The position numbers and the translations under genes are program-made. A stretch of DNA of 64,000 nucleotides from a phage. Shown here piece by piece: positions 2,198-46,005 of the stretch. Numbering within the stretch: the first letter of the stretch is position 1; every line of letters starts with the position of its first letter. The notes under the pieces are model-generated. The model was not told where the DNA came from. It searched no databases and was given only the letters and a program-made list of their open reading frames with translations. The DNA lies in NCBI GenBank assembly GCA_024571205.1, contig GCA_024571205.1_4523.1. One strand, written 5' to 3'.

Positions 2198-3096
2198 TGG
2201 CTATTTTCCGCGTACCAATCTTGAGTATGCGGTCTTATGAAACTGGACAGTATGCTATCCTTAAGGATGGCAACTTCCAACTTCATTTGCACCGTGCTAA
2301 TCCGGGTGATGTGATTACATATCCACGTAATGCATCTGATATTAAAGAATGCGAACGTCTTTTCCCAGAATTTAAGTTTGTTCCATTATGGTATAAAGAT
2401 AACGCGTATAACACTCGTAAATATTTCTGGACTGAAAATGAATTTGTGGTTGATTCATTAATTGATTATTATGATTGTGATTTTCTAATCACAGATATCA
2501 CTGGTTATGGCGGCGCTTTTGATGTAGAATTCAATTTCAATATCACTGCAGACCCTAATAAACCACGTTTTTATATTGACGAATTCTTAAAAACCGATAT
2601 GTTGTCAGTTAATCGTTCACTTCAAACTACCGTGTTGAATGAACGTCAAAAAGAAGTGCTGGTTAACGCAGGTGCAGATGGTAATAAGATTATCGTAACT
2701 CAGAAAGTTATACGTCCTTCCATCATGCAGCGTCTTGTAGGTGATTTGGCTCCTATTCATCTAGATGGTATTTTTCATCCATTTCGAATTAGTGACCCAT
2801 GTTATCGTTTTGAACAAGTGGTTGAATGTGCAATTCAATTAGGTCAACCGCTTTATATAACCGATCCAAATAATAGCTTCGACAGAAATAAGTATCCTGA
2901 AGAAGCGCTGATTCGAATTTTTAAACCAACTAAAACTGAGTACTATCAAATTCTTAAAGGACGCCCGAAGATTCAATATTTCGAAAATCCTGAAGAAGTA
3001 TTCCATCCAGGTCTTGGTGAGTTCATCTACTTTAATGCTTTAATTTCTTCACCATATAATATACCTAAATACGAAGATGTCGTAATCGAGGAATAA
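2197..3096 (+). CDS. hypothetical protein, 299 aa (in the slot where T4 has beta-glucosyltransferase)
   Basis: Start overlaps upstream stop (TAATG); no motif recognised. Confidence 0.6.
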   Translation: MAIFRVPILSMRSYETGQYAILKDGNFQLHLHRANPGDVITYPRNASDIKECERLFPEFKFVPLWYKDNAYNTRKYFWTENEFVVDSLIDYYDCDFLITDITGYGGAFDVEFNFNITADPNKPRFYIDEFLKTDMLSVNRSLQTTVLNERQKEVLVNAGADGNKIIVTQKVIRPSIMQRLVGDLAPIHLDGIFHPFRISDPCYRFEQVVECAIQLGQPLYITDPNNSFDRNKYPEEALIRIFKPTKTEYYQILKGRPKIQYFENPEEVFHPGLGEFIYFNALISSPYNIPKYEDVVIEE

Positions 3097-3097
3097 A

Positions 3098-3646
3098 ATG
3101 GCTAAAATTATTTTAGTAGACGGCCCAGATAATGCTGGTAAAACAACTTTCATTAATGACATAATGGAAATTAGTGAAAGATATGTAAAGATTGATTTTC
3201 CTAAACGAACAGTTGATGGACGTTTCGATGTTAAGTCTCGAAATGAAGTTGGCTGTTTCGAAACGATGTTGAATTATTTAGACCCTACTAAGATTTATCT
3301 GTTAGACCGTGGATATATTAGTAACTGGGTTTATGGACGTATTCGGCAAGATGCGGACTCTGTTCTTGATGTTTATGAACAGGACTATGTTCGTCTTTGC
3401 CAAAACCATGATGTGTTCACAATTATTTTAACACGTAATGAAATGACTGAAAGTTTTGAAGACGACCTTATTACTTTGTCTTCATTCGGTTTTAATACAG
3501 TCATTTCACATTTTGAAGAGTTTGCAATTCATAACAAAATCCAAACGTATCAATTACTTAATCATGATGGTGCTAACAAAATTATAGGATTTAATGCAAG
3601 CGAACGTAATGGTTTGATTACAGAAATCATCAAATGGGCTCGTTAA
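3098..3646 (+). CDS. P-loop kinase, thymidylate-kinase-like (nucleotide/nucleoside kinase family)
   Basis: Walker A GPDNAGKTT near N-terminus; LLDRGYISNWVYG resembles the TMPK DRx..S..Y motif; 182 aa. Confidence 0.6.
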   Translation: MAKIILVDGPDNAGKTTFINDIMEISERYVKIDFPKRTVDGRFDVKSRNEVGCFETMLNYLDPTKIYLLDRGYISNWVYGRIRQDADSVLDVYEQDYVRLCQNHDVFTIILTRNEMTESFEDDLITLSSFGFNTVISHFEEFAIHNKIQTYQLLNHDGANKIIGFNASERNGLITEIIKWAR

Positions 3647-3663
3647 GAGCCATTTAAAGTTTT

Positions 3664-3691
3664 AAATGCTGTATAACCCTTAGTATATAAT
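3664..3691 (+). promoter_or_regulatory. possible MotA-dependent middle promoter upstream of uvsX
   Basis: aaaTGCTgtA box about 12 nt upstream of -10 tatataat (3684-3691). Confidence 0.35.
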
Positions 3692-3744
3692 CGTCTTATC
3701 TTTTAAACATGAGTAAAATATAATGATGCCTATGGAAAAATACA

Positions 3745-11693: not shown

Positions 11694-12215
11694 ATGGCGC
11701 ACTTTAATGAATGTTCACAACTTATTTCTGGTGTTGATAAAGCAGAAGAAGCTTATTTTAATGCTCTGATTCACGAAGATAAAGACCCACTGCAGGTAAT
11801 GCTTGATATGCAGAAATCTTTACAGGTTCGTCTGGCAAATGACAAGCCTGAACATAACAAACATCCTGATGAATTGGCTACTGCTGGTGATGTTGTTGAT
11901 TGGCTGCGTAATCAGAAAGATTATATTGATGATGAATTCCGTGAACTGCTGACTTCACTTGGTGGTATGAGCAATGGTGAAAAAGCCGCTAGCAGTGTAT
12001 GGAAGCCATGGAAAGCACAACATGCTGAATATCGAAATCGTCGTATCGATGAACTGTCTCCTGAAGACCAGCTTGAAATTAAATTTGAAATGATTGATAT
12101 TCTGCATTTCGTTCTAAATATGTTCCAAGGTCTTGGTCTTTCTGCTGAAGAAATCTTTAAACTTTACTACTTGAAAAACCAACACAACTTTGAACGTCAG
12201 GATAATGGTTACTAA
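11694..12215 (+). CDS. 56: gp56 dCTPase/dUTPase (dCTP pyrophosphatase)
   Basis: MAHFNEC start after RBS AGGAAA; MazG-like motifs; matches recalled T4 gp56. Confidence 0.85.
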   Translation: MAHFNECSQLISGVDKAEEAYFNALIHEDKDPLQVMLDMQKSLQVRLANDKPEHNKHPDELATAGDVVDWLRNQKDYIDDEFRELLTSLGGMSNGEKAASSVWKPWKAQHAEYRNRRIDELSPEDQLEIKFEMIDILHFVLNMFQGLGLSAEEIFKLYYLKNQHNFERQDNGY

Positions 12216-12221
12216 TTAAGT

Positions 12222-12229
12222 TATAAATA
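12222..12229 (+). promoter_or_regulatory. late promoter TATAAATA upstream of soc
   Basis: Exact TATAAATA about 30 nt upstream of soc ATG. Confidence 0.5.
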
Positions 12230-12260
12230 CACCTGTAATTAAACAACAAAGGAGTTAATT

Positions 12261-12497
12261 ATGGGTGGTTATGTAAACATCAAAACCTTTACGCATCCTG
12301 CTGGTGAAGGCAAAGAAGTTAAAGGTATGGAAGTTTCTGTTCCGTTTGAGATTTATTCAAACGAACATCGGATTGCAGATTCTCATTATCAGACTTTCCC
12401 GTCTGAAAAAGCTGCTTACACTACTGTGGTGACTGACGCAGCAGATTGGCGTACTAAGAACGCTGCAATGTTTACCCCTACACCAGTAAGTGGTTAA
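12261..12497 (+). CDS. soc: Soc small outer capsid protein
   Basis: 78 aa; YVNIKTF..HYQTFPSEKAAYTTV matches recalled T4 Soc. Confidence 0.8.
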   Translation: MGGYVNIKTFTHPAGEGKEVKGMEVSVPFEIYSNEHRIADSHYQTFPSEKAAYTTVVTDAADWRTKNAAMFTPTPVSG

Positions 12498-12598: not shown

Positions 12599-12826
12599 AT
12601 GTTAAATCGTTGGATTAAACCTAATAACACATTAGGCGCTTTGATTGCACAAGAAGTTTCGTTGAAATACGGACTTGGATATTATGATGACGTAGTCGTA
12701 CACTCATTCATGATGGATGGTGAAGACGTCAAATTTAATGCCGAAATCCGTTGGGATGATGGTGGTGTTCGTTTTGTTCGAGGAACAATTAATGCTTACG
12801 ATACTGAAGAAGTTATTTGCTGTTAA
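12599..12826 (+). CDS. hypothetical protein, 75 aa
   Basis: RBS GAGGAGAA; follows a promoter. Confidence 0.55.
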   Translation: MLNRWIKPNNTLGALIAQEVSLKYGLGYYDDVVVHSFMMDGEDVKFNAEIRWDDGGVRFVRGTINAYDTEEVICC

Positions 12827-12839
12827 ACCAGGCGAAGGT

Positions 12840-13028
12840 ATGATGCCTATTCCTGATACACACGAAAAAAGTTGGGAATACATTGGTGACGGCATGATGG
12901 AAGAAGTTATTCGTCCTAAGTCTGCTTCAAGCTCTTCAAGTTATAATCATTCATACGTATCGTCTTGGCCTGGTGATTCCGGGTCAAGTTATTCTGATTG
13001 TGGTTCAAGCTCAGGGAGCTGCGAATGA
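12840..13028 (+). CDS. hypothetical Ser-rich small protein, 62 aa
   Basis: Start trimmed to ATG 12840 (the track N-extension overlaps the previous gene); C-terminus SASSSSSYNHSYVSS..GSSSGSCE. Confidence 0.45.
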   Translation: MMPIPDTHEKSWEYIGDGMMEEVIRPKSASSSSSYNHSYVSSWPGDSGSSYSDCGSSSGSCE

Positions 13029-13204
13029 ACAAGATAGTTAAATGGTTTAAAAGCTGGGACGATGGTGTCGGTCCAGAAGATTGGTTAGATGTTCTTGAAG
13101 AGAATATGGCTAAAGAATTCCAGAAACATGAAGAAAAGCTCGTCGAAGATGAAGGCGAACGTATTGTAAAACTTTATATGGGTGAACCATCGAGGAAATT
13201 ATAA
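13025..13204 (+). CDS. hypothetical protein, 59 aa
   Basis: ATGA overlap with upstream stop; start MNKIVKWFK. Confidence 0.45.
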   Translation: MNKIVKWFKSWDDGVGPEDWLDVLEENMAKEFQKHEEKLVEDEGERIVKLYMGEPSRKL

Positions 13205-13668
13205 TGGATGCTATGTTATTTAAAATGTATTTGCTTGAAGCCAAGTCATTTAAACATATACCAGTAGAAGATAAGACTCCACTAGAAATAGCTATTCTCA
13301 TTAACAAAAGTCTAAATAATCCGCAATATATCGTAGAAGAATTCTGCAAATTGCAGATTCCTAAAGGTTACAAAATTCGTGTAGAGCGAGTTGGAGCTAT
13401 TACTCATTCTAAAAATTCTCCGTTTAGTCTTGAAGAAGGCATAAAGGACTTAGGTTATGAATCTACAGAAAATGCTGTTTATGTGAATCCTGAAAAGCGT
13501 TTAGACCTGTTTGAAAAGCGAGACCATACGTATTTTGCCAAAAAATACTTTATTACATCATTAGCAGATTTAATCCATTTGCAACGAGCTATTTGGAAAT
13601 TTTTTAAGACAAAAGGTGTAGCACTAGAAACATTCTCTGAACCTGCTAGTTTTTATTTAGGTGAATAA
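13204..13668 (+). CDS. hypothetical protein, 154 aa
   Basis: ORF in a tightly coupled array. Confidence 0.6.
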   Translation: MDAMLFKMYLLEAKSFKHIPVEDKTPLEIAILINKSLNNPQYIVEEFCKLQIPKGYKIRVERVGAITHSKNSPFSLEEGIKDLGYESTENAVYVNPEKRLDLFEKRDHTYFAKKYFITSLADLIHLQRAIWKFFKTKGVALETFSEPASFYLGE

Positions 13669-13849
13669 TATGGACCTTATGAGTATGTTTGATGAGCCTG
13701 AAGTCAAGGCTCCTAAAGTGCATCATAGTGAACTTGTTGATGAACTAGATAGTATTATACAACGACACGGCTTTAGTTTACCTGTTGAAGCCCTGAAAGA
13801 CCTTGCCTCTTATTATGACGACCCTCCACCATGGAGTCCTTGGAAATGA
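13661..13849 (+). CDS. hypothetical protein, 62 aa
   Basis: Overlaps upstream stop; acidic. Confidence 0.45.
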   Translation: MNNMDLMSMFDEPEVKAPKVHHSELVDELDSIIQRHGFSLPVEALKDLASYYDDPPPWSPWK

Positions 13850-14010
13850 AAGAGAAATTTAAAGAGAAATTCTTACTAGAAATCAAGGAAAAAGACTTTG
13901 AGACATGGTATCGAATGGTGAAAGGGTTAACATTGCTTTTTAAAGCATCGTTATTCATGTTAGAACAACCTGGCCCTGATGGACCTTTAGTAGGAAAGCT
14001 TAAAAAGTAG
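13846..14010 (+). CDS. hypothetical protein, 54 aa
   Basis: ATGA overlap; below the ORF-track cutoff. Confidence 0.4.
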   Translation: MKEKFKEKFLLEIKEKDFETWYRMVKGLTLLFKASLFMLEQPGPDGPLVGKLKK

Positions 14011-14038
14011 TTTACATTCCCTCCTCTCGTGTTATGAT
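14010..14038 (+). promoter_or_regulatory. T4-early-type promoter
   Basis: GTTTAC 14010, 17-nt spacer, tatgat 14033-14038; precedes ATG 14066. Confidence 0.55.
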
Positions 14039-14065
14039 AGGCTTATCTTTAAATGGAGGTCTATC

Positions 14066-14647
14066 ATGACATGTCAATCTGAACTTCAAGAACGCGAATA
14101 TCTCGCAGCACTAATTGATGATAAATTCACTAAACAAGAACAAAACATTCTCTGGGCTTGCACTGATTATAAGGAAGACCCAGATTTCCACTATGAATTA
14201 GACCGTCTTGTTCGTAAGCATATGACTTCTACAGTACCAGTAGAACTCTACCGTGGTGTAACTCCAGAAGAAGTAGAACATCTTTCATTGTTATCTGTAG
14301 GATGCCATTGGTCTCCTGGACGAGTAACATCGTTTACAACAGACTTTGGTACGGCCAGACAGTTCTCTGGGAGTTGGGAATATCAAACGTACACTATTCT
14401 TAGTCTCAGGAATGCTCCGTTCATTTTCGATTACTACCAAAACATGGTTAACATTGTACTCGCCGGAAAGAACCCTAAGCATGTTATGGAAGAAAAACGT
14501 GTTGACGTCCTAGATATGATTGAATCTGAACAAGAATACATGGTCTCAGGTATCTCTAGATTTGAGATTGTAGAAATTGAAGACTTAGAATATGACCCTT
14601 TATCTCGGTTATACAAAATCATTCATTTGAAAATGTTGAATTTTTAG
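14066..14647 (+). CDS. Mod-type ADP-ribosyltransferase (R-S-E class), 193 aa
   Basis: R (ELYRGV), S-x-T (TSFTT) and E-x-E (EQEYMVSG) motifs; tandem paralog follows, as with T4 modB/modA. Confidence 0.75.
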   Translation: MTCQSELQEREYLAALIDDKFTKQEQNILWACTDYKEDPDFHYELDRLVRKHMTSTVPVELYRGVTPEEVEHLSLLSVGCHWSPGRVTSFTTDFGTARQFSGSWEYQTYTILSLRNAPFIFDYYQNMVNIVLAGKNPKHVMEEKRVDVLDMIESEQEYMVSGISRFEIVEIEDLEYDPLSRLYKIIHLKMLNF

Positions 14648-14676
14648 TGTACAAACTCTTCCGATGATGATACTAT
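14647..14676 (+). promoter_or_regulatory. T4-early-type promoter (GTGTAC variant)
   Basis: gtgtac, 18-nt spacer, tactat; precedes ATG 14705. Confidence 0.5.
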
Positions 14677-14704
14677 ACCTTTATCAACCACAGGAGAAAC
14701 CTAA

Positions 14705-15313
14705 ATGTTTATGCCGTATAACGAGTGTGAAATTGAAGAAATGGTTCGTCGTGCTCAATGCCCTGAATATCAAGATGAATTGCAGTACGAAATTGATAGT
14801 CAATTCAGCGACATTGAACAAAGTGTACTATGGCAGTGTATGGAAAACAAGCCTGATAGCATCCAACAAGATTTAAGTGCAATTGTTCGTAGAAATTGGA
14901 CGTCTTCTGTTCCTGAGACAATGTATCGTGGAATCTCTAAGAAAACTATGGCCACACTCGATGATAAAGGCATTGGTAGTATTATTAAATTTGACAGAGT
15001 AATGAGCTTTAGTCCAGTGTTCGGTGTAGCACGTAACTTTGCTTCGTATAATTTTTACGGAACATTTAATATGTTCTGCATCAAAGATGCACCATTTGCT
15101 TTCAACTTCCGTGAACATATGCTTAACATGATTCTGGCTGCGCCATCTTGTGAGTTCAATGGAGCTTTCCCTGAAGCGACAAGACGGTCTAATGCTAGAC
15201 TTATATCTGACGAATGTGAATTTATGCTCCCTATAGGGACTACACTGCGTGTAGATTCTATTATTCAAGATGGAAATTATACAATCTGGAATCTGTCTAT
15301 TGTCGGTTACTGA
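14705..15313 (+). CDS. Mod-type ADP-ribosyltransferase (R-S-E class), 202 aa
   Basis: TMYRGIS, MSFSP, ECEFMLP motifs; paralog of 14066-14647. Confidence 0.75.
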   Translation: MFMPYNECEIEEMVRRAQCPEYQDELQYEIDSQFSDIEQSVLWQCMENKPDSIQQDLSAIVRRNWTSSVPETMYRGISKKTMATLDDKGIGSIIKFDRVMSFSPVFGVARNFASYNFYGTFNMFCIKDAPFAFNFREHMLNMILAAPSCEFNGAFPEATRRSNARLISDECEFMLPIGTTLRVDSIIQDGNYTIWNLSIVGY

Positions 15314-15387
15314 CTGGATTGGAATAACCGGATGGAACTCAGAACCATTATAACACATAAAAAATTAAAGCATTTTACGAAAAAAGA

Positions 15388-15416
15388 GTGTACACTACCT
15401 GAGGGCATGATATTAT
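15388..15416 (+). promoter_or_regulatory. T4-early-type promoter (GTGTAC variant)
   Basis: gtgtac 15388, 17-nt spacer, tattat 15411-15416. Confidence 0.5.
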
Positions 15417-15466
15417 AAGCTTATCAGCTAAATGACCTTAACGTCCGTAAGACAGAGGAAAATATT

Positions 15467-16213
15467 ATGTTATCAAATAATAAAATTAACAAAATCAATC
15501 GTCGTCTTGACCACACCAGAGCTTCTGCGAAGAGACGCTCTAAGGATTTTAACTTAGACTTTAATTACCTTAAAAACATTCTTGATCAAAAGGTCTGCGC
15601 TTACTCAGGTGAATCTTTCAATAACTCTGTTGAAGGTGAGAAATTATCCTTAGAACGTTTTGATAACGATATCGGCTACATTAAAGGTAATGTTATCCCA
15701 GTTAAGAAAAAATATAACACGGCTCGTTCCGATTTAACATTAGAAGAACTTATCGAGAAACGTGATGCCATTGCAAGGCGTATCGCTAATCCTTCTGCCC
15801 GTAAAGTAGAGAAACTTAATCTCGACGAGAAGAAATGGGCCCAAATCAAAAAGGTTTATGATACTATTTTAAAAATCCGAGCAAAACGTGAAAATCGTGT
15901 TAAGCATATGACGAACATGATGAAAAATCAACCTTTATCTAACGAATCTAAACTTAGAATTGTTGCTTTGAAAGCACGCATTAATGGCTCGCATCAAGCA
16001 GAAGGCCATGAACTTACTAAACTCAACGTTCTTCTTAAAGGCTCTGACTGGAAAACTAAAACTAAATTAACTGACGCTGAATCGCTTTTCGATACATATG
16101 ATAAAGTTATCCAAGGTCTGCAACGTTTTGAAAAGATTGGTTTCATTGGTAAATTAAAATTGAAACGTGGCCTACCACTTAGCGCATCATTATTCCAACT
16201 GATTAAAGGTTAA
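15467..16213 (+). CDS. hypothetical basic protein, 248 aa (srd position)
   Basis: Lys/Arg-rich; lies between the mod genes and dda, where T4 has srd. Confidence 0.55.
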   Translation: MLSNNKINKINRRLDHTRASAKRRSKDFNLDFNYLKNILDQKVCAYSGESFNNSVEGEKLSLERFDNDIGYIKGNVIPVKKKYNTARSDLTLEELIEKRDAIARRIANPSARKVEKLNLDEKKWAQIKKVYDTILKIRAKRENRVKHMTNMMKNQPLSNESKLRIVALKARINGSHQAEGHELTKLNVLLKGSDWKTKTKLTDAESLFDTYDKVIQGLQRFEKIGFIGKLKLKRGLPLSASLFQLIKG

Positions 16214-16215
16214 TT

Positions 16216-16527
16216 ATGGTTTATGTATATGCAATAGTTTATCGAGATATGGAAGGATTTACTGTCCCAGTTCCACTTGATGAACATCGTCCTGCAGTAT
16301 TTTTTAGAAAGGATATTGCAGATAAAGTTTTCGATACTTTGAAAACACAGTATAAAACAGATTTAAAAATGGGAGTTCTAAGAATGGTCGAAACTCCGCG
16401 TAAGTTCTGGTTTAATAAGCTTGAAATGAAACACATTAAACTAGATGCGGAGACGCAAAGATTGTATCAACGAATTCTAGATACTGGCCGTATTGTTAGT
16501 ATTCCAATTGCAGGGACTTTACGATGA
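16216..16527 (+). CDS. hypothetical protein, 103 aa (dda.1 position)
   Basis: ORF directly upstream of and overlapping dda. Confidence 0.55.
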   Translation: MVYVYAIVYRDMEGFTVPVPLDEHRPAVFFRKDIADKVFDTLKTQYKTDLKMGVLRMVETPRKFWFNKLEMKHIKLDAETQRLYQRILDTGRIVSIPIAGTLR

Positions 16528-17837
16528 CATTTGATGATTTGACTGAAGGCCAGAAAAACGCCTTCAACGTTGTTATGAAAGCTATTAAAGAAAAGAAACA
16601 TCACGTAACTATTAACGGGCCTGCTGGTACAGGTAAAACAACCCTTACTAGATTCATCGTTGAAGCCCTTATTTCTGCCGGAGAATCAGGTATTATTTTA
16701 GCAGCCCCTACACATGCTGCTAAAAAGGTTCTAAGCAAACTTGCGGGTCAAGAAGCATCGACTATTCATAGCATTCTTAAAATCAACCCAACTACATACG
16801 AAGAAAACGTATTATTTGAACAGAAAAAGGTTCCAGACTTAGCCTTGTGTCGTGTACTGTTATTTGATGAAGCATCAATGTGTGACCGTTCTCTGTTTAA
16901 AATAATGTTAGCTAGTATCCCTAAATGGTGCACAGTAATTGGAATTGGTGACCGATGCCAGATTCGTCCGGTAGACCCAGGCGAATCCACTGCGTATCTA
17001 AGTCCTTTCTTCACTCACAAAGACTTCGTGCAATGCAACCTTACAGAAGTTAAACGTAGCAATGCACCAATTATTGATGTTGCGACTGATATTCGTAATG
17101 GCAAATGGATTTATGATAAAGTAGTTGATGGGCACGGTGTTCATGGATATACAGACCTTAAATCGTATATGATGAACTATTTTAATGTCGTTAAAACTCC
17201 TGAAGACCTTTTCGAAAATCGAATGATGGCATTCACAAATAAGTCGGTGGACAAGTTAAATTCAATTATTCGCCGAAAACTTCTTGAAACAGAAAAGCCA
17301 TTTATTAAAGACGAAGTCATTGTTCTACAAGAGCCGTTTACCAAGACGTATAAGCTAGATGGCAAAAATATGACCGAAATGCTTTTCAATAACGGGCAAT
17401 TCGTTCGTATTCGAGATGCTGTAGAAACGTCTACATTCGTTAAAGCACGTGGTGTTTCAGGCGAATATATGATACGATACTGGAATCTTACAGTAGAAAC
17501 ATATGGGGATGATGAAGAATACGTCCGCGAGGATATAAAGGTTATTTCTTCCGAAGAAGAGCTTTATAAATTCAATTTGTTTTTGGCTAAGACCGCAGAA
17601 ACATACAAATTCTGGAATAAAGGTGGTAAAGCTCCATGGAGTAAATTCTGGGATGCTAAACGCATGTTCACTAAGGTGAAGGCGCTACCTGTATCAACCT
17701 TCCATAAGGCTCAGGGTATGTCTGTTGACACGGCCTTTGTTTATACACCGTGTATCCATTATGCCGATTCAGAATTAGCTAAACAGCTATTGTATGTCGG
17801 CACAACTCGTGGTCGTTTTGACGTCCATTTTATTTGA
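16524..17837 (+). CDS. dda: Dda SF1 DNA helicase
   Basis: Walker A GPAGTGKTT; 437 aa; strong match to recalled T4 Dda. Confidence 0.9.
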   Translation: MTFDDLTEGQKNAFNVVMKAIKEKKHHVTINGPAGTGKTTLTRFIVEALISAGESGIILAAPTHAAKKVLSKLAGQEASTIHSILKINPTTYEENVLFEQKKVPDLALCRVLLFDEASMCDRSLFKIMLASIPKWCTVIGIGDRCQIRPVDPGESTAYLSPFFTHKDFVQCNLTEVKRSNAPIIDVATDIRNGKWIYDKVVDGHGVHGYTDLKSYMMNYFNVVKTPEDLFENRMMAFTNKSVDKLNSIIRRKLLETEKPFIKDEVIVLQEPFTKTYKLDGKNMTEMLFNNGQFVRIRDAVETSTFVKARGVSGEYMIRYWNLTVETYGDDEEYVREDIKVISSEEELYKFNLFLAKTAETYKFWNKGGKAPWSKFWDAKRMFTKVKALPVSTFHKAQGMSVDTAFVYTPCIHYADSELAKQLLYVGTTRGRFDVHFI

Positions 17838-17846
17838 GAGAAAATT

Positions 17847-18524
17847 ATGAGCACTGATGTTATTATAGACTTTGAAACATTCGGCAATACATCAAAAGCG
17901 GCTGTTATTGACCTTGCGGTTATTGCATATAATTCAGACCCTGAAGTTGTTGAATCATTCGAAGAACTTGTTCAACGAGGTAAGCGAATTAAATTTAATT
18001 TAGCTTCTCAAAAAGGGAAGCGAGTTTTCGCTAAATCCACCATGAAATGGTGGAAAGAACAATCGGCTGAAGCACGTAAAAACTTGGCCCCATCTGAAGA
18101 CGATGTCACTACGCTTGATGGCATTAAAATCTTTTTAGATTATTGTCGAGCTAATAAAGTTGACCAATGGAAATCACAAATGTGGTGCCGTGGTATGAGT
18201 TTTGACTTCCCAATCTTGGTCGATTTGATTCGTGACCTCTATCGTGATGAAGGTGTTCTTGAACCAGATATTGATACTGATAAATTAGAACCGGTTAAAT
18301 TCTGGGCTCAACGCGATATTCGTACGGCAATCGAAGCTTACTCGTTGACGCGAGGATTAAGTATGTGTCCGTTACCAATGGGTACGCTAAAAGGATTCGT
18401 TGCCCATGATAGTGTTCATGATTGTGCTAAAGATATTTTGATGTTAAAATATGCTCAGCGTTATGCGCTTGGCCTTGAAGATGTCCCTGAGAATCCTGAC
18501 CCGTTAAGTGTAAAACAGCGATAA
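17847..18524 (+). CDS. dexA: DexA exonuclease A (DnaQ-like 3'-5' exonuclease)
   Basis: 225 aa; IIDFETFG exonuclease motif I; position after dda. Confidence 0.85.
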   Translation: MSTDVIIDFETFGNTSKAAVIDLAVIAYNSDPEVVESFEELVQRGKRIKFNLASQKGKRVFAKSTMKWWKEQSAEARKNLAPSEDDVTTLDGIKIFLDYCRANKVDQWKSQMWCRGMSFDFPILVDLIRDLYRDEGVLEPDIDTDKLEPVKFWAQRDIRTAIEAYSLTRGLSMCPLPMGTLKGFVAHDSVHDCAKDILMLKYAQRYALGLEDVPENPDPLSVKQR

Positions 18525-35498: not shown

Positions 35499-36158
35499 TT
35501 ATTTAGCCCGCCCTAATATCCTTGCTGCTTGGTTGCATATTGCAGCCAAGCGTTCTTCATTTAGCACATCCGATCCCTTATACCAATACATAGAAACAGT
35601 TCCCGCATATATGTTATCCAAATTGAAGTAAGGACAACTATACATATACGCCAGTTCCGGAGTTTTTGATTTGGTAGGTAAGAAAGCAAAATCTGTTTTA
35701 GAAGTAAAGTGAAGTCCACTTAAATGGACCGAATATTCTGCTGTCGTTTTATCAACAGGAAATCCTCCCATAGATTTTTCAGTTACTGTGCTAGGTAACT
35801 TACCTTCATACGCAATAAGGTCGACGAAATAATTTAGATTTTTAGGTCTGAAAGAATACACCGAACTAAAATCCGCCCTTGATGTGACGTGGACTATTTG
35901 TAGTTGTTCTAAAGCCGCAGATTCAAATCGTGTATTTCTTTCTTTTTGAATTACTTCTGTGTAAGTATCATATTTCGACCTCACGTAATAATCCATAAAA
36001 ATATTCCCTTTGTACCATATTAGTGCCATTAGGAACAAAAGAACTACAACAGCAACTCTTGAAATAAGAATATTTCCAGAGGCGTTATCTTTGAAAATGC
36101 GGTCTAGCAACCCAAATAAAATATCACTAGGCGAAAATGATACTTTTGGTGCTGCCAT
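35499..36158 (-). CDS. t: holin T
   Basis: Start set at MAAPKVSFSPSD (second ATG, preceded by GGAGG); matches recalled T4 holin. Confidence 0.85.
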   Translation of the reverse strand: MAAPKVSFSPSDILFGLLDRIFKDNASGNILISRVAVVVLLFLMALIWYKGNIFMDYYVRSKYDTYTEVIQKERNTRFESAALEQLQIVHVTSRADFSSVYSFRPKNLNYFVDLIAYEGKLPSTVTEKSMGGFPVDKTTAEYSVHLSGLHFTSKTDFAFLPTKSKTPELAYMYSCPYFNLDNIYAGTVSMYWYKGSDVLNEERLAAICNQAARILGRAK

Positions 36159-36177
36159 ATTACCTCCCATTTATCAA

Positions 36178-36185
36178 TATTTATA
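36178..36185 (-). promoter_or_regulatory. late promoter TATAAATA for t
   Basis: Minus strand reads caatTATAAATAttgataaatGGGAGGtaatATG. Confidence 0.55.
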
Positions 36186-36203
36186 ATTGAGAGGTATTAT
36201 CGT

Positions 36204-36983
36204 TTAAATCCAGGAGCCGTAGATTGTGCCTGTAGCACCCCATGACGGTGAACTTCCGAATACTGCTCTGCCAGGAGCACCACCGCCAGATCTAGATAAG
36301 TGATTACCCCATCCATCTCCGCCACGACCTCCAGCATCACCGCCATTGCCTCCGCCGAATTGGGAAGTGTAACCGGCCCCGCCCGGGGCGTCATAACTAG
36401 CATTACCACCCGGCCAATTAACGCCACCTCCGCCGATGCCAAATGGTCTACCACCACCGCCACCTGCTGTAGCATTTGGCGCCCAGCTATTCTGTAATGA
36501 CACTGCACCACCTCCGCCACCGCCTGATGCAATAACACCATAGTTCCAAATACGAAGTCTTCCGCCGATATCATTTTGGATTACATCGCCACCATTAGTG
36601 CCTGGGTTTCCGTTTACAGTACCGTTACCACCTCGTCCCCACATATGAACTCCACCATGAATATTCAAAGTAACATATTCATTTGGCGTATCGCCATACA
36701 TAAAGAATAATGGAACATCTTTACTATATGATACCAAATTTCCGGTGATATTAAACACTATAGGTGCACTACCTGCCTCAAAACATCTATCTCGGAACCA
36801 TTGACCGTTGAAGTTATGGTCTGCTCCAAGTGTGTGAATTATTTCTCTTGAACGGCCCGCGAATTGGGACATCCATGAAGGGTTTCCTAAACGAAGTTCC
36901 CTTGAAGCAGCCGTCATCCATCTTTGTCCCGTTTCAGCAACGGCTGAAGTCCCAATCCAACCAGGGATTCCTACTACTGCCAT
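36204..36983 (-). CDS. 38: gp38 receptor-recognising adhesin of the long tail fibre (T2/T6 type, glycine-rich motifs)
   Basis: 259 aa with several poly-Gly segments ([34 protein letters not shown]); position between 37 and t. Confidence 0.8.
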
Positions 36984-36993
36984 ATAAACCTCC

Positions 36994-37009
36994 AGGGCCC
37001 GAAGGCCCT
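36994..37009. promoter_or_regulatory. GC hairpin between genes 37 and 38
   Basis: AGGGCC-cgaa-GGCCCT; a T-run follows on the + strand, the gp38 RBS GGAGG follows on the - strand. Confidence 0.5.
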
Positions 37010-37013
37010 TTTA

Positions 37014-40000
37014 TTATTTTATCAATGATTTAATTAATGCTTTCAATTCGGTAATTTCAGATTTCAATTCCTTGATTTCATCTGTATGCTCGTTTATTGC
37101 AGCTGTATTTAAACCAATAATACCGTTATAGTTCAAACGAAGCAGTCCGGTCTCTTTATCTTCAGAAACAAGTTCAGGTAATACTTCTTGAACTTCCTGA
37201 GCAATTAAACCTGCGGACGGTTTAACTTCGTCTGTAACAGAGTTTTTAAGCAGATAAGTATAACCGCCCAATAGTTTAGATTTCTCTTGAGCGTTCTTAA
37301 TAAGCTTAATTTCCGACTTACAACGAATATCAGAACGAATATAAACGTCGTTAACATCAATGTTATCACGAACATACATACCTGCATTACAGTGGAAGTT
37401 AACATCACCGAATGTCTGAGCTAAACCAGGTCTAAAACTAAACACACCTTGGCCGTTTGCATATGCGTTGAAAATACCATCGTTTTCCCAAAGCAAACCG
37501 GTATCGTTATCTCCAAGTACAATACACGGCCCGCCCCATGCAGGGTCACCACCACCAGCTGATACTCTACTGCTCTTAAGTAAGCTTGGAGCATAAAAAG
37601 TACCGTTATGATGGAATTCATATACAGCTTGTGGGTCGTAACCGTTTTCCTGATTACCTACACGAATAATACCTTGTGCCCATGTATTAGTAATGCGTCG
37701 CATACCAAAATCTACACCAGATATGTATCCTTCATTAGTAATACCGGATTTTCCTTTAATAATAGGATAATAACTATCATTACCAACATTACCAAAATCT
37801 ACAAATACCGGTGCTTCTTGATTCCATTGATTTCCCCAACCACCGCCCTGGTGTGCGGCCCATTGTGTACCGTTTATATGGAGGCGGTCTCTATTAAAAT
37901 TAAATGTTCCTTGGCCTTGAGGAGAAAGTGATATTTCTCCGTTATTTGTTATATATACACCGCCTTGTGTAACATAACTGTAAAAACCTAGACCATTGTC
38001 GGCACCGCCTTTACCAATATACCAATTATTGGCCCCGGCCGTATCAGAACGAATAAATGATGAATCACTGGTCAAAGGAGGATTAAGAACTATTCCAGCG
38101 GCATCTTTATTAATCCAAAGAGTGCCGGTCATCGTGTCGCCTTCTTTCGAAACACGAGTCGCAATAGCATCGCGAATATTTGTAGTATCACCGGCAGAAG
38201 TAAACGTTTTCCAGATATCAGACCAGATATTACCATTGCGAGCAATAGTAGCTTCACCGCCGCCAACAGAAACGTTATCTGGGAAGTTAACAGTACCGTC
38301 TTGATTAAAACGAGACGTATGGCCTTGTGATCCATCTTCTTTCAGATGATGAATAACGAATGTACCCGAATTAATTTCAGTACCTAAAGACCAAACGGCT
38401 TTACCATTTAAAAACTTCTGTTTAACAATAGGATAATATTTGCTTACAGCATCATCATCAATTTCCTGGAAAATAGGAGCCGCTTGGGCATATTGAATAT
38501 CATATCCACCTGCGCCAGCGCCATGTCCAACAAATTTAATATATCCGTTTGCTGCGAACGTATTGTAACTTGATTGTAAATCTGGAATAGTAACTTTACC
38601 AGTATCTAAAGCCAAACTAAACGGGCGAAGTGGGCCGATATCACCATTTTTGCCTTCGCCATAAGCAGTTGGAATAATATGAAGACTTCCTTCTGAACGT
38701 CTAAAAATGGCTCCATAATCTGCGTTCCAAATACGAAGAGCATTCACTGCTCCAGATGAAATTTCACCTGTTGTGTGAACTCCTCTATCTCCAGCAGTAA
38801 CACCAGATGATTCAAATGAACCATTAACGTTCATTTCTACTTCGCCAGTAGTAAGTCTTTGAATATAGCTCATCCAGCTAGTTGCATCAGAAATTTCCAT
38901 AACGTTTTTACGGATACCTCCGCTTGGATCAACAAACGTATTACCCCAAACTTTAATATCCATATTATCAACCGAGCTGTATCCTGTTGTGTTGCCTCTA
39001 AACATTAGTGTAGAAGAATTATTTCTACCATCTATATTTACAGAACCGCCAATAACGTCAATATTACCAGGAGTAACTAACAAACCGCCGTGAGTATTAA
39101 TGTTTGTAGTACCCTTGCCGCGGAAATAATGATGATAGTTACCGCCTTGATAATATCCCAAAAGAGTCTGACCATCTCCAAACGCGTTATTATCGTGATA
39201 TGTCACAACAGTAGCAAGAGCATAGTTTTCAGTTGGAGGAGTAGTTAAATCGGTTCCATTAGTAGAATATCCAGCTACAAATTTTCTTAGGCTAGTTGTT
39301 TCGCTAGGATTAAATAAAAACGTTTTTGTTCCATTATTAACGCTGAAATAATATCCGTCTTGATGCCATTTAAATCCAGTATCATTATCTCCTAAAGCAA
39401 TGCTAGATGGTCCTAATATTGAATAATCTTTATTACCTGGTGTTAAACCGATAGAAATTGAGTGACTTGATTTAATTCCGCCGCTCCAGGTAAATGACCA
39501 AAGATAAGCATCTAATCCATCTCCACTATACCAAGTTATTCCATCATTATCTTTAACTTCATGGAAAATACCAGAACCAACGGCATTACGCATGACACGA
39601 AGATGATTAATAGCAGTAGTGCTTTCAGACAATGGAACATTGTCTGCCATCGAATAGATGTCATAATCACCCGTAGATTTATTATTAGTAATGACTTTGT
39701 TGGTTAGAATTTGTGGAGACGAAATAGATTTCCATGCTGATACTTCAGGTGAAGTAAATAGTCCACTGCCTGAAAATGCATAAGTGCTTTCGCTACCAGC
39801 GGCATAGTCTTGAACCCTGATATTAAGTACTTGTGTAGTTAAACCATCATTAGCCGGGGCATAAATGATTCCGCGTTCGCGACTATTGTTATCGAAAAAA
39901 CGAACATGTGCTGTGCCTGAACTTTTTGTAATAAGTTCACCGCCTTCAGTCATAATCTGCCCGGCGGCAATAATATCGCGAGTTACTCGAGCAATACCAG

Positions 40001-40265
40001 TTAAATTAAAATTACCCGTCTGTGTGAAGACGCCATTTAAAGTATAATCACCAGTTTGGTTGTAATTGCCAGTATGAATAACATTCCCGTCAATACTACC
40101 ACCTTTAGCAAAACCTAGATCAATAATATTTCCTTGGTCATCTTTAGTAAAAAGTACACGGTCTTTTAAGTTTATAGCCAATTCACCTTCGGCTAATACT
40201 GAAGCGGCAGGACGTGCTCCTGCAGTTTTGCTTCTTTTAAATTGTATTTGTTTTAAAGTAGCCAT
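37014..40265 (-). CDS. 37: gp37 long tail fibre distal subunit
   Basis: 1083 aa; C-terminal coiled-coil/intramolecular chaperone-like segment; gene order 34-35-36-37-38. Confidence 0.85.
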   Translation of the reverse strand: MATLKQIQFKRSKTAGARPAASVLAEGELAINLKDRVLFTKDDQGNIIDLGFAKGGSIDGNVIHTGNYNQTGDYTLNGVFTQTGNFNLTGIARVTRDIIAAGQIMTEGGELITKSSGTAHVRFFDNNSRERGIIYAPANDGLTTQVLNIRVQDYAAGSESTYAFSGSGLFTSPEVSAWKSISSPQILTNKVITNNKSTGDYDIYSMADNVPLSESTTAINHLRVMRNAVGSGIFHEVKDNDGITWYSGDGLDAYLWSFTWSGGIKSSHSISIGLTPGNKDYSILGPSSIALGDNDTGFKWHQDGYYFSVNNGTKTFLFNPSETTSLRKFVAGYSTNGTDLTTPPTENYALATVVTYHDNNAFGDGQTLLGYYQGGNYHHYFRGKGTTNINTHGGLLVTPGNIDVIGGSVNIDGRNNSSTLMFRGNTTGYSSVDNMDIKVWGNTFVDPSGGIRKNVMEISDATSWMSYIQRLTTGEVEMNVNGSFESSGVTAGDRGVHTTGEISSGAVNALRIWNADYGAIFRRSEGSLHIIPTAYGEGKNGDIGPLRPFSLALDTGKVTIPDLQSSYNTFAANGYIKFVGHGAGAGGYDIQYAQAAPIFQEIDDDAVSKYYPIVKQKFLNGKAVWSLGTEINSGTFVIHHLKEDGSQGHTSRFNQDGTVNFPDNVSVGGGEATIARNGNIWSDIWKTFTSAGDTTNIRDAIATRVSKEGDTMTGTLWINKDAAGIVLNPPLTSDSSFIRSDTAGANNWYIGKGGADNGLGFYSYVTQGGVYITNNGEISLSPQGQGTFNFNRDRLHINGTQWAAHQGGGWGNQWNQEAPVFVDFGNVGNDSYYPIIKGKSGITNEGYISGVDFGMRRITNTWAQGIIRVGNQENGYDPQAVYEFHHNGTFYAPSLLKSSRVSAGGGDPAWGGPCIVLGDNDTGLLWENDGIFNAYANGQGVFSFRPGLAQTFGDVNFHCNAGMYVRDNIDVNDVYIRSDIRCKSEIKLIKNAQEKSKLLGGYTYLLKNSVTDEVKPSAGLIAQEVQEVLPELVSEDKETGLLRLNYNGIIGLNTAAINEHTDEIKELKSEITELKALIKSLIK

Positions 40266-40273
40266 AAGTCCTC

Positions 40274-40930
40274 TTAATAATAGCCGAAATCTTGAACAGA
40301 ATCCTTAATAACAATTTGGTCAAATCGTGGAACATGCGAGGGTTGAGATGCAGGATTCTGTGAGAAAAAGTTTGGGGCGGTTAGCGCGCCGGTCATCGTA
40401 TCTCCTGAACGGAGTACACGACTGTTTGCATTAGCATTAACTGTATTTATTTGACTATCAACATAATCTTTGCGAGTAAGGTCGTAATTATTTAAAGGTG
40501 CTAACGTTGTGGCTCTGAATTGAGATGCTTCAATAACGCCTTTAGAACTTATATTACCGGTGCGAGTATCAATTACAGCGGTTCTTTCACCTGTACCTTG
40601 AGATGATTTAAACCCAATACCATACCACGAAACAATATCCATGTTTGTTTGGTCGAATGTCGCGGCGTCACCACCACCAGAAAAAATACCATTCGTTTGG
40701 TCATCTGCTGTTTTGACTGCAACACCTTCATTAAAGATTACCTTTTTGAGATATGCCCCACCGTTTGCTTTAGATACGAAATCGTTATCAGCAGCCTGTG
40801 GTTTATTGTATTCAGTATATAATTTAAATGTTTTGTATAAGATGTCATCGCCAGCTGGCATTAAAGGAAAATTGCCTTGATGCCATATGACGGAACCACC
40901 AATTGTACTTCCGGCTTTTAAATCGGCCAT
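40274..40930 (-). CDS. 36: gp36 long tail fibre distal connector
   Basis: 218 aa, upstream of 37. Confidence 0.8.
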   Translation of the reverse strand: MADLKAGSTIGGSVIWHQGNFPLMPAGDDILYKTFKLYTEYNKPQAADNDFVSKANGGAYLKKVIFNEGVAVKTADDQTNGIFSGGGDAATFDQTNMDIVSWYGIGFKSSQGTGERTAVIDTRTGNISSKGVIEASQFRATTLAPLNNYDLTRKDYVDSQINTVNANANSRVLRSGDTMTGALTAPNFFSQNPASQPSHVPRFDQIVIKDSVQDFGYY

Positions 40931-40956
40931 TTCGTGTCTCCTTATTAATATTAAAG

Positions 40957-40964
40957 TATTTATA
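40957..40964 (-). promoter_or_regulatory. late promoter TATAAATA for gene 36
   Basis: Minus strand TATAAATA about 28 nt upstream of the gene 36 ATG. Confidence 0.55.
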
Positions 40965-40972
40965 CGCGAAAA

Positions 40973-40988
40973 GGAGACCGAAGTCTCC
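40973..40988 (-). terminator. terminator hairpin after gene 35 (UUCG tetraloop; functions on both strands)
   Basis: GGAGACttcgGTCTCC followed by TTTT on the - strand and tttatt on the + strand. Confidence 0.55.
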
Positions 40989-40989
40989 T

Positions 40990-42114
40990 TTATTCTGTAT
41001 ACTCTTTAAACTCTTGTCCAAATACCTTACCTGTATCAACAGATAACTGAGTAGGCAAATCCATTATATCATTGTCGGTTAATGATTCATCAATGTAATT
41101 AACGCGAATACCGTTTAGGCCGAACTCTGCTGGTTTTGCTATACTTCCGTTGCATGATACTTCGGTGAAAATGACATTTCGTAAACCACCTTGACCGACT
41201 GGGGCCGTACGATAACAATATACTGTAAAGCCGTCAGCTTCGGCTGGTATTTCGACATACTCTTCATATAACTTCCATTCACCAGCAGTTCCATCAAAGT
41301 TTATATCTTTAGATGATATAGGAGAGCTAGATGGAGTCTTAAAGAAACGAATTGAAAGTCTTGTGGTTCCTTCCTCTAATAATTCTTCATCAGCCATTAA
41401 TTGAAATTTCAGATAAAGAAAATCTGTAGGCTTTAATCTATAGTTTGCTAGAGGAGTAACAAGGGATGACGTAGGCATCCTTTTTATTTCATTGTTAGTT
41501 CCTCCAACAGGAGATAAAAACGTTTCCAATGCTTCGTATGTACGACTAGGGTAGCCGGTAGCACCTATATCAGCAATAGAGTCATAAACTATATCCAATG
41601 GGGTCCCATAATCTGCAATTGTTTTCTTATTACTGTATTTTATATGTTCTAACGCAATAGAATTTTTACCAGACACATAAAACGCCGAATATGAAATATC
41701 AACAAGATTAGCAACTTCAATCGAAGGTATAACTGAACTCCCTGCGGCTTTAAACCATGCAATTATTTCGGGTGGTAAATTAAATTTGTTATTAGAAATA
41801 AATGCGAAAATGAAATTATTTGCATACGTATTAACAAACGAAATAAATGCAGCTGAAGTGGCATTATTTGTTGGTGCAAAATTGTATAATTTACTATCAA
41901 CTATAGTCCCATTTTCCGGATTTATCACCCTAACATTTAGCCCAATACCAAAAGACTGCAGTCCTAAAGGCTCGTTTTGGAACAAAATATATGGATTAGA
42001 TGTTGAAAGCGGGCATGAACCCGCTATACTTAACTTAAATCTAACCGAATTGCTTTCCGATAAAAATGGCGTTTGGACGTATCCTTGTCCAAACCTTGCC
42101 ATAAATTTTTCCAT
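40990..42114 (-). CDS. 35: gp35 long tail fibre hinge connector
   Basis: 374 aa; between 34 and 36. Confidence 0.8.
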   Translation of the reverse strand: MEKFMARFGQGYVQTPFLSESNSVRFKLSIAGSCPLSTSNPYILFQNEPLGLQSFGIGLNVRVINPENGTIVDSKLYNFAPTNNATSAAFISFVNTYANNFIFAFISNNKFNLPPEIIAWFKAAGSSVIPSIEVANLVDISYSAFYVSGKNSIALEHIKYSNKKTIADYGTPLDIVYDSIADIGATGYPSRTYEALETFLSPVGGTNNEIKRMPTSSLVTPLANYRLKPTDFLYLKFQLMADEELLEEGTTRLSIRFFKTPSSSPISSKDINFDGTAGEWKLYEEYVEIPAEADGFTVYCYRTAPVGQGGLRNVIFTEVSCNGSIAKPAEFGLNGIRVNYIDESLTDNDIMDLPTQLSVDTGKVFGQEFKEYTE

Positions 42115-42122
42115 ATAACCTC

Positions 42123-45956: not shown

Positions 45957-45990
45957 GGTAGTCCTCTTATCATTATGTGTTCTATTTTAC

Positions 45991-45998
45991 TATTTATA
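45991..45998 (-). promoter_or_regulatory. late promoter TATAAATA for gene 34
   Basis: Minus strand TATAAATA about 35 nt upstream of the gene 34 ATG. Confidence 0.55.
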
Positions 45999-46005
45999 AA
46001 TGAAG

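Follow-up and report, generated by a model that had tools for sequence, protein, structure and literature searches.

Two tandem genes in a 64,000-nucleotide stretch of phage DNA (hereafter, the window) very likely encode ADP-ribosyltransferases (ARTs) of the Mod family, within the R-S-E clade, with the upstream gene (ORF1) being of the modB type and the downstream gene (ORF2) of the modA type. This explanation as a whole draws on sequence similarity, profile matches, predicted fold and synteny. The modB-modA pair is already known, as it is annotated in RB69 and in some 150 genomes of closely related phages, and its presence here is an ordinary finding. The first-pass annotation had described the region 14066-15313 as two tandem ModA/ModB-like R-S-E ARTs on the basis of Arg, Ser-x-Ser/Thr and Glu-x-Glu motifs. 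All six of the motifs it quoted are present, and the reading is upheld by sequence, by matches to PHROG 832, by the predicted folds and by synteny.

Locus and genome context

Both ORFs lie on the plus strand in one reading frame, with 57 nt between them, and their ends in the ORF list coincide exactly with those first annotated (Table 1). A megablast search with positions 13000-17000 retrieved Escherichia phage PECP20 at 99.7% identity, in which both proteins are encoded with 100% identity, and a further approximately 150 genomes at 95-99% DNA identity (about 97%). Among these matches is Shigella phage Shf125875, which is classed as a Mosigvirus, the RB69 group of Tevenvirinae. Judged from its sequence, the source genome of the window is a Mosigvirus (RB69-like) T-even phage. 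Both ORFs are intact in about 150 Mosigvirus genomes. In Shf125875, the upstream ORF is labeled "ModB" and the downstream ORF "ModA", by similarity to RB69 modB and modA.

Neighboring genes include mrh (Pfam T4_MRH, 7e-38), srd (PHROG 1400, 6e-100) and dda.1 (Pfam Phage_Y01A), as well as small modA.2-type ORFs, dda and dexA. The order in the window, mrh-modA.2-ORF1-ORF2-srd-dda.1-dda-dexA, mirrors that of the T4 early region (...mrh...modA.2-modB-modA-srd-dda.1-dda...dexA). In keeping with the Mod family, both ORFs are located in the early region, flanked by modA.2 and srd, and encode single-domain proteins of about 200 amino acids. Gene order is identical in the Dhakavirus Bp7, and is thus common to Tequatrovirus, Mosigvirus and Dhakavirus. 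In a Karamvirus, this slot contains only one Mod gene, which shows that the number of copies is not constant across the subfamily.

Each ORF is preceded by a Shine-Dalgarno sequence, and promoter-like sites are located 5' of ORF1 and in the intergenic spacer. A consensus scan of the region returned seven promoter-like sites, compared with a mean of 5.8 in shuffled sequences. Since this count is not above that of the shuffles, we regard both promoter-like sites as leads only.

Table 1. Features of the tandem Mod genes and their candidate expression signals (positions within the window; aa, amino acids).
Feature	Position	Strand	Basis
Promoter-like site (sigma-70/T4-early type), 5' of ORF1	14011..14038	+	TTTACA, 16 nt spacer, TATGAT, TG before -10; consensus scan 10/12 plus extended -10 TG
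Shine-Dalgarno GGAGG of ORF1	14055..14059	+	6 nt before ATG; read from sequence
ORF1, 193 aa, probable modB-type Mod-family ART (RB69 modB slot)	14066..14647	+	PHROG 832, BLASTP, synteny, fold
ORF1 R63-G64 codons (predicted NAD-binding Arg, strand beta1; motif ELYRGV)	14252..14257	+	invariant column; predicted strand 60-64
ORF1 S89-F90-T91 codons (S-x-S/T motif; TSFTT)	14330..14338	+	S89, F90 invariant in 34 sequences; predicted strand 88-91
ORF1 E155-Q156-E157 codons (predicted catalytic Glu-x-Glu; EQEYMV)	14528..14536	+	both Glu invariant
Intergenic spacer, 57 nt	14648..14704	+	weak promoter-like site and ORF2 Shine-Dalgarno; read from sequence
Weak promoter-like site in spacer	TGTACA 14648-14653, 17 nt, TACTAT 14671-14676	+	8/12, under scan threshold
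Shine-Dalgarno AGGAG of ORF2	14692-14696	+	read from sequence
ORF2, 202 aa, Mod-family ART in the modA slot	14705..15313	+	PHROG 832, BLASTP, synteny, fold
ORF2 R75-G76 codons (motif TMYRGIS)	14927..14932	+	invariant; predicted strand 72-76
ORF2 S101-F102-S103 codons (S-x-S; MSFSP)	15005..15013	+	S101, F102 invariant, S103 at least 90% conserved; predicted strand 100-103
ORF2 E170-C171-E172 codons (predicted catalytic Glu-x-Glu; ECEFML)	15212..15220	+	both Glu invariant; immediately before predicted strand 173-175

Family membership, predicted fold and catalytic residues

Both proteins match PHROG 832, "RNA polymerase ADP-ribosylase" (ORF1, 1.1e-36; ORF2, 3.7e-38), and both are similar to T4 ModA and ModB in BLASTP searches, with E values ranging from 2e-09 to 5e-34. 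ORF1 matches T4 ModB with 90 bits, 36% identity and E = 3e-27, and T4 ModA with 41 bits and 26% identity. For ORF2, the corresponding values are 107 bits, 31% identity and E = 5e-34 with T4 ModB, and 72 bits, 34% identity and E = 3e-20 with T4 ModA. The two ORFs match each other with 87 bits and 32% identity. Previous work has placed the Mod family in the R-S-E clade (PMC9503650).

Local scans with Pfam-A and NCBIfam matched neither ORF. NCBIfam also misses T4 ModA and ModB themselves; because these libraries lack a matching model, the blank result does not speak against membership. A precomputed PF26816 label is carried by all 32 of the homologues drawn from a large protein collection. Since a word-index protein search returned 12 and 20 homologues for the two ORFs, breadth was assessed by searching 1.84 billion representative sequences exhaustively with a profile. 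This search identified only 133 clusters at E <=1e-3, with 16 at E <=1e-30, which shows that the family is small and carried for the most part by phages. Among the weaker matches to the Mod profile are several proteins with Pfam ADPrib_exo_Tox (PF03496) or ART (PF01129) domains, two of which are very large (2060 and 3416 amino acids). Through these proteins, the Mod profile is linked by sequence to the classical R-S-E toxins. Sequence searches of the PDB with both ORFs gave only chance-level matches (trigger factor, nucleophosmin and Cas9; E >=0.02), and therefore a relative of solved structure is not detectable by sequence. According to a 2025 preprint, a crystal structure of ModB is unavailable. 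By both accounts, the Mod enzymes have yet to yield a solved structure.

Structures were predicted with AlphaFold2 by using 34-sequence alignments. The models have high confidence (ORF1, pLDDT 89.7 and pTM 0.84, with two loops at lower confidence; ORF2, pLDDT 94.5 and pTM 0.88), and in both, a beta-rich core comes after three to four helices at the N terminus. In each model, one strand bears the Arg and the following conserved strand the Ser-x-Ser/Thr motif, with the Glu-x-Glu motif just ahead of a strand. Members of the R-S-E clade carry an Arg on strand beta1, Ser-x-Ser/Thr on strand beta2 and either Glu-x-Glu or Gln-x-Glu at the ARTT loop, and both ORFs have all three, on the strands where they are expected. 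All of the PDB matches listed by Foldseek for either model are R-S-E ARTs, with E values of about 1e-5, probability 1.00 and TM scores of 0.4-0.55. They include Certhrax, CDTa, C3larvin and Tre1 for ORF1, and C3, Certhrax, iota Ia and Vis for ORF2; VIP2, HopU1 and SpvB are also among the listed matches. When the ORF2 model was compared with predicted viral structures in BFVD, a phage ModB (Serratia phage CBH8) and a Tequatrovirus ModA (Shigella phage Sf22) were matched with a TM score of 0.85.

The first-pass annotation had proposed alignment with T4 ModA and ModB as a check of its reading, with loss of the Glu-x-Glu motif as the result that would speak against it. In a MAFFT alignment with both T4 proteins, the Arg-Gly pair, the Ser and both Glu residues occupy invariant columns, and the reading stands. 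The Arg-Gly, Ser-Phe and Glu-x-Glu residues are also invariant in 34 homologues that reach down to about 28% identity. Specifically, the Glu pairs E155/E157 of ORF1 and E170/E172 of ORF2 align with E163/E165 of T4 ModA and E171/E173 of T4 ModB, and R63/G64 of ORF1 and R75/G76 of ORF2 align with R73/G74 of T4 ModB. Mutants of T4 are informative about these columns. The T4 ModB R73A/G74A mutant carries out neither ADP-ribosylation nor RNAylation (PMC10468400), and the T4 ModA E165A mutant, altered in the column occupied by E157 of ORF1 and E172 of ORF2, is inactive (PMC11404850). Both ORFs are real genes, and the enzymes that they encode are probably active.

Assignment of the two copies and alternative readings

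The first-pass annotation also held that sequence alone does not allow one to say which copy is modA and which is modB. This statement agrees with raw BLAST scores and with a neighbor-joining (NJ) tree, but gene order and a four-cluster bootstrap favor an assignment. In plain BLAST comparisons, T4 ModB outscores T4 ModA for both ORFs. With T4 ModB as the query, ORF2 scores 102 bits versus 90 bits for ORF1, and the best Mosigvirus match of T4 ModA is likewise ORF2. When 68 family members were placed in an NJ tree, the shallow ORF1 clade (100%) and ORF2 clade (99%) were well supported, but the deep nodes had values of 7-37%, and the tree thus cannot assign orthology.

In a comparison by segment, the N-terminal helices of ORF2 are 33% identical to ModB versus 19% to ModA. 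From the Arg motif onward, identities of the successive segments of ORF2 are 40/33/38% to ModA versus 35/29/32% to ModB. ORF1 is ModB-like in segments 1-3 of 4, and about equally similar to both in the last. In the four-cluster bootstrap (1000 replicates, three distance corrections), ORF1 pairs with ModB and ORF2 with ModA in 87-90% of replicates, versus 7-9% for independent duplication and 2-5% for the swapped pairing. Based on gene order in three genera, similarity by segment and this bootstrap, we assign ORF1 to the modB type and ORF2 to the modA type with moderate confidence, in agreement with the GenBank and RB69 labels. ORF1 has ModB as its best T4 match, occupies the same slot and is paired with ModB in the bootstrap, and we take it as the orthologue of T4 ModB. 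ORF2 as the orthologue of T4 ModA is favored by synteny and the bootstrap, but its bit score is higher to ModB and the deep nodes of the NJ tree are unsupported.

These mixed signals allow for an arrangement in which orthology is swapped or is not one-to-one. ORF2 would then be the functional counterpart of T4 ModB, acting on translation factors and in RNAylation, ORF1 would act on other targets as a paralogue particular to the lineage, and Mosigvirus would lack a true RNA polymerase alpha-specific ModA. The BLAST scores noted above, by which ORF2 is the best cross-lineage partner of both T4 proteins and itself prefers ModB, are in line with this arrangement, as is the sequence F(S/T)D-EQSVLWQCME common to ORF2 and ModB. 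There is also a gap among relatives of T4 ModA: about 500 phage records are at least 95% identical to it and three are 60-95% identical, with the other 431 below 60% and at most 37.9% identical among the matches listed. Moreover, because some Tevenvirinae have one Mod gene, the duplications could be independent. However, both swapped pairing and independent duplication are recovered far less often in the bootstrap than positional orthology, ORF2, starting at the Arg motif, resembles ModA more closely than ModB, and identical gene order is kept in three genera. We consider the swapped or non-one-to-one arrangement rather unlikely.

Two further readings accept the fold but question the activity. 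One of the copies might be a catalytically dead pseudo-enzyme, serving as a decoy or binding protein, that was kept after duplication. Decay is frequent in tandem paralogues, and ORF1 is the shorter protein and has the two loops of lower model confidence. Nonetheless, the Arg, Ser and Glu-x-Glu residues are intact in both copies and invariant in each clade across the 34 sequences, even at about 28% identity, and two intact ORFs are conserved in about 150 Mosigvirus genomes. We consider this reading highly improbable. Alternatively, the proteins might not modify protein arginine but use the ART fold for other chemistry, acting as NAD+ glycohydrolases or ADP-ribosylating small molecules or nucleic acids. 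Such activities are known for the fold elsewhere, and Vis, a modifier of small guanidino compounds, is among the structural matches. This possibility is extremely doubtful. Both the Glu-x-Glu motif and the homology with T4 ModA and ModB over the full length indicate ARTs that act on protein arginine, and the listed structural matches include no DNA-modifying ART of the H-Y-E clade such as DarT. Because all catalytic residues are invariant, we rejected the readings as a pseudo-enzyme and as an enzyme with non-protein targets.

We thus return to the reading of two active protein-arginine ARTs of the modB and modA types, for which a mechanism can be proposed. ORF1 and ORF2 would be translated separately, each from its own Shine-Dalgarno site, and, by analogy with T4, sigma-70 early promoters would probably drive their transcription shortly after infection. 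Each protein is predicted to be a single-domain mono-ADP-ribosyltransferase of the R-S-E clade, in which three to four N-terminal helices form a bundle packed on a split beta-sandwich. NAD+ would be held by the Arg of strand beta1 and the Ser-x-Ser/Thr motif of strand beta2, and the Glu-x-Glu motif at the ARTT loop would catalyze the attachment of ADP-ribose to the side chains of arginines in host proteins.

T4 ModA and ModB have been shown biochemically to be protein-arginine ARTs (PMC10468400, PMC3014915). T4 ModA modifies both RNA polymerase alpha subunits at Arg265 (PMC2988021). The targets of T4 ModB include S1, EF-Tu and trigger factor, and the enzyme RNAylates S1 and L2 (PMC10468400, PMC3014915). 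A literature search found no enzymatic or target data on RB69-type Mod enzymes. Family membership, predicted fold, conserved catalytic residues and synteny follow directly from the comparisons above. Since identity to the T4 enzymes is only 31-36%, we infer the enzymatic activity, timing and targets of the present pair from the work on T4. By this analogy, RNA polymerase alpha at Arg265 is the most likely target of the downstream enzyme. The upstream enzyme would most likely modify translation factors (S1, EF-Tu and trigger factor), and may use NAD-capped RNA as a substrate (RNAylation).

Given this level of identity, and given that the N-terminal helix motif of ORF2 is ModB-like and its catalytic half ModA-like, the division of labor may differ from that in T4. 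NAD-capped RNA might, for example, be a substrate of both Mosigvirus enzymes, or strict specificity for RNA polymerase alpha might be found in neither. We put this forward tentatively, as an idea with a modest chance of being correct. If it is true, the Mosigvirus pair would provide natural variants for mapping the determinants of target choice and RNAylation. Why only T4 ModB RNAylates efficiently is not understood (PMC10468400). The discovery value of the pair is small, and its residual value is comparative: the two homologues are modeled with confidence, have the same catalytic residues at 31-36% identity and show a reshuffling of ModA-like and ModB-like segments, so that studies of specificity could use them as natural chimeras.

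Comparison with known systems

The closest known counterparts are the RB69/Mosigvirus modB and modA genes in GenBank (for example, Shf125875 AIM50600 and AIM50599; PECP20). These are the same genes, with no substantive difference, and their labels were assigned by similarity only.

T4 ModB (NP_049636, 207 amino acids), an arginine-specific ADP-ribosyltransferase and RNAylating enzyme, has PHROG 832 membership, size and the R-S-ExE residues in common with the ORFs. It occupies the same upstream slot as ORF1, to which it is 36% identical. Unlike T4 ModB, ORF1 lacks approximately 14 N-terminal residues, as well as the acidic eight-residue insertion YEDTDGLD that precedes the ExE helix in the T4 protein. 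ORF2 resembles T4 ModB over its full length at 31% identity, with a near-identical N-terminal EQSVLWQCME. The modB and modA genes of T4 overlap by 4 nt, whereas a 57-nt gap separates the genes here.

T4 ModA (NP_049635, 200 amino acids), the ADP-ribosyltransferase that acts on Arg265 of RNA polymerase alpha, is encoded in the downstream slot beside srd, as is ORF2. The overall identity of 34% between these proteins rises to 38-40% in the catalytic half, and both have L(V/I)SDE before the catalytic Glu. A Tequatrovirus ModA model also matches the predicted fold of ORF2 with a TM score of 0.85. The proteins differ in the serine motif (S-A-S in T4 ModA, S-F-S in ORF2) and in the N-terminal helix motif (SEIELLIHC versus EQSVLWQC), and ORF2 has the higher bit score to ModB.

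T4 Alt is a virion-packaged ART of 682 amino acids that belongs, like Mod, to the R-S-E clade (PMC9503650). PHROG 832 spans long proteins too, and the ORFs map to positions of about 1250-1440 in its 1480-position profile. Alt is three times larger than the ORFs and is injected with the DNA. BLASTP detected no significant similarity between T4 Alt and the ORFs (E >=0.78), and a tblastn search of the window with T4 Alt revealed no Alt homologue. Membership of the ORFs in the Alt family was rejected on the basis of their size (193 and 202 amino acids) and these E values.

More distant relatives are the C3-like and binary-toxin R-S-E ARTs (C3bot, Certhrax, iota Ia, CDTa, VIP2, Vis, HopU1 and Tre1), whose fold and arrangement of the catalytic triad match the predicted models of the ORFs, at 9-16% sequence identity and TM scores of 0.4-0.55. 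In contrast to these toxins, the ORFs carry no secretion or translocation domains; as probable phage early proteins, they would act inside the infected cell.

Mod gene number and giant Mod-profile matches

The Tevenvirinae differ in the number of genes for ModA/ModB family (Mod) ADP-ribosyltransferases (ARTs) that they carry, with one in Karamvirus and two each in Dhakavirus, Mosigvirus and Tequatrovirus. The window's ORF1 (probably modB-type) and ORF2 (probably modA-type) both match one and the same single gene in Karamvirus, as they likewise do in Klebsiella T-even phages. The loci of a Karamvirus and a Dhakavirus are listed in the table.

In giant proteins of 2000-4000 aa (P0058, P0068, P0071 and other long matches from the exhaustive profile search), the Mod profile matches several stretches per protein. 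In P0071, one of these proteins, ADPrib_exo_Tox occurs together with HipA-like kinase and APH domains. The giant matches appear to be polyvalent or polymorphic toxin proteins in which ART modules are repeated.

Features of the window and of related Mod loci
Feature	Sequence	Coordinates	Strand	Description
103-aa ORF	window	12717-13028	+	from ORF list
Promoter-like site	window	15389-15416	+	TGTACA, 16-nt spacer, TATTAT, with TG; consensus scan and sequence reading
srd (product Srd)	window	15467-16213	+	248 aa; PHROG 1400 'Srd anti-sigma factor', 6e-100
Single Mod gene	L005 (Cronobacter phage Pet-CM3-4, Karamvirus)	2411-3088		225 aa; between modA.2-like ORF and srd
Two Mod genes	L004 (Bp7, Dhakavirus)	2465-3703		

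Srd and the region upstream of its gene

The promoter-like site falls within the 153 nt that separate ORF2 from srd, and a GT(T/G)TACA motif is repeated 5' of ORF1, ORF2 and srd. In a PHROG profile comparison, the N-terminal 100-150 residues of Srd also match HNH endonuclease and endonuclease VII families (phrog_3322, 5.6e-19; phrog_3118, 3.6e-15; phrog_1035, 1.4e-11). These matches suggest that Srd contains a nuclease-like domain or has arisen from one.

Other features of the window and comparison with T4

The 103-aa ORF overlaps an mrh.2-like ORF (12599-12826) and has a Ser-rich, low-complexity C-terminal tail (…SASSSSSYNHSYVSSWPGDSGSSYSDCGSSSGSCE). A shorter version is annotated in the related Shigella phage Shf125875 (Mosigvirus) as similar to RB69ORF025c. 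Negative GC skew (-0.20 to -0.03) is confined to the block at 36000-46000, and GC content reaches 0.42 at 36-38 kb; this shift in composition is consistent with a possible run of opposite-strand genes there.

A comparison of the ORF list with T4 shows that segF, the homing endonuclease gene that in T4 lies between gene 56 (dCTPase) and soc (12215-12261 in the window), is missing from the window, as are dexA.1 and dexA.2, which in T4 separate dda from dexA (17837-17847 in the window). Between mrh and ORF1, the T4 genes srh, modA.3 and modA.4 appear to be missing or replaced.
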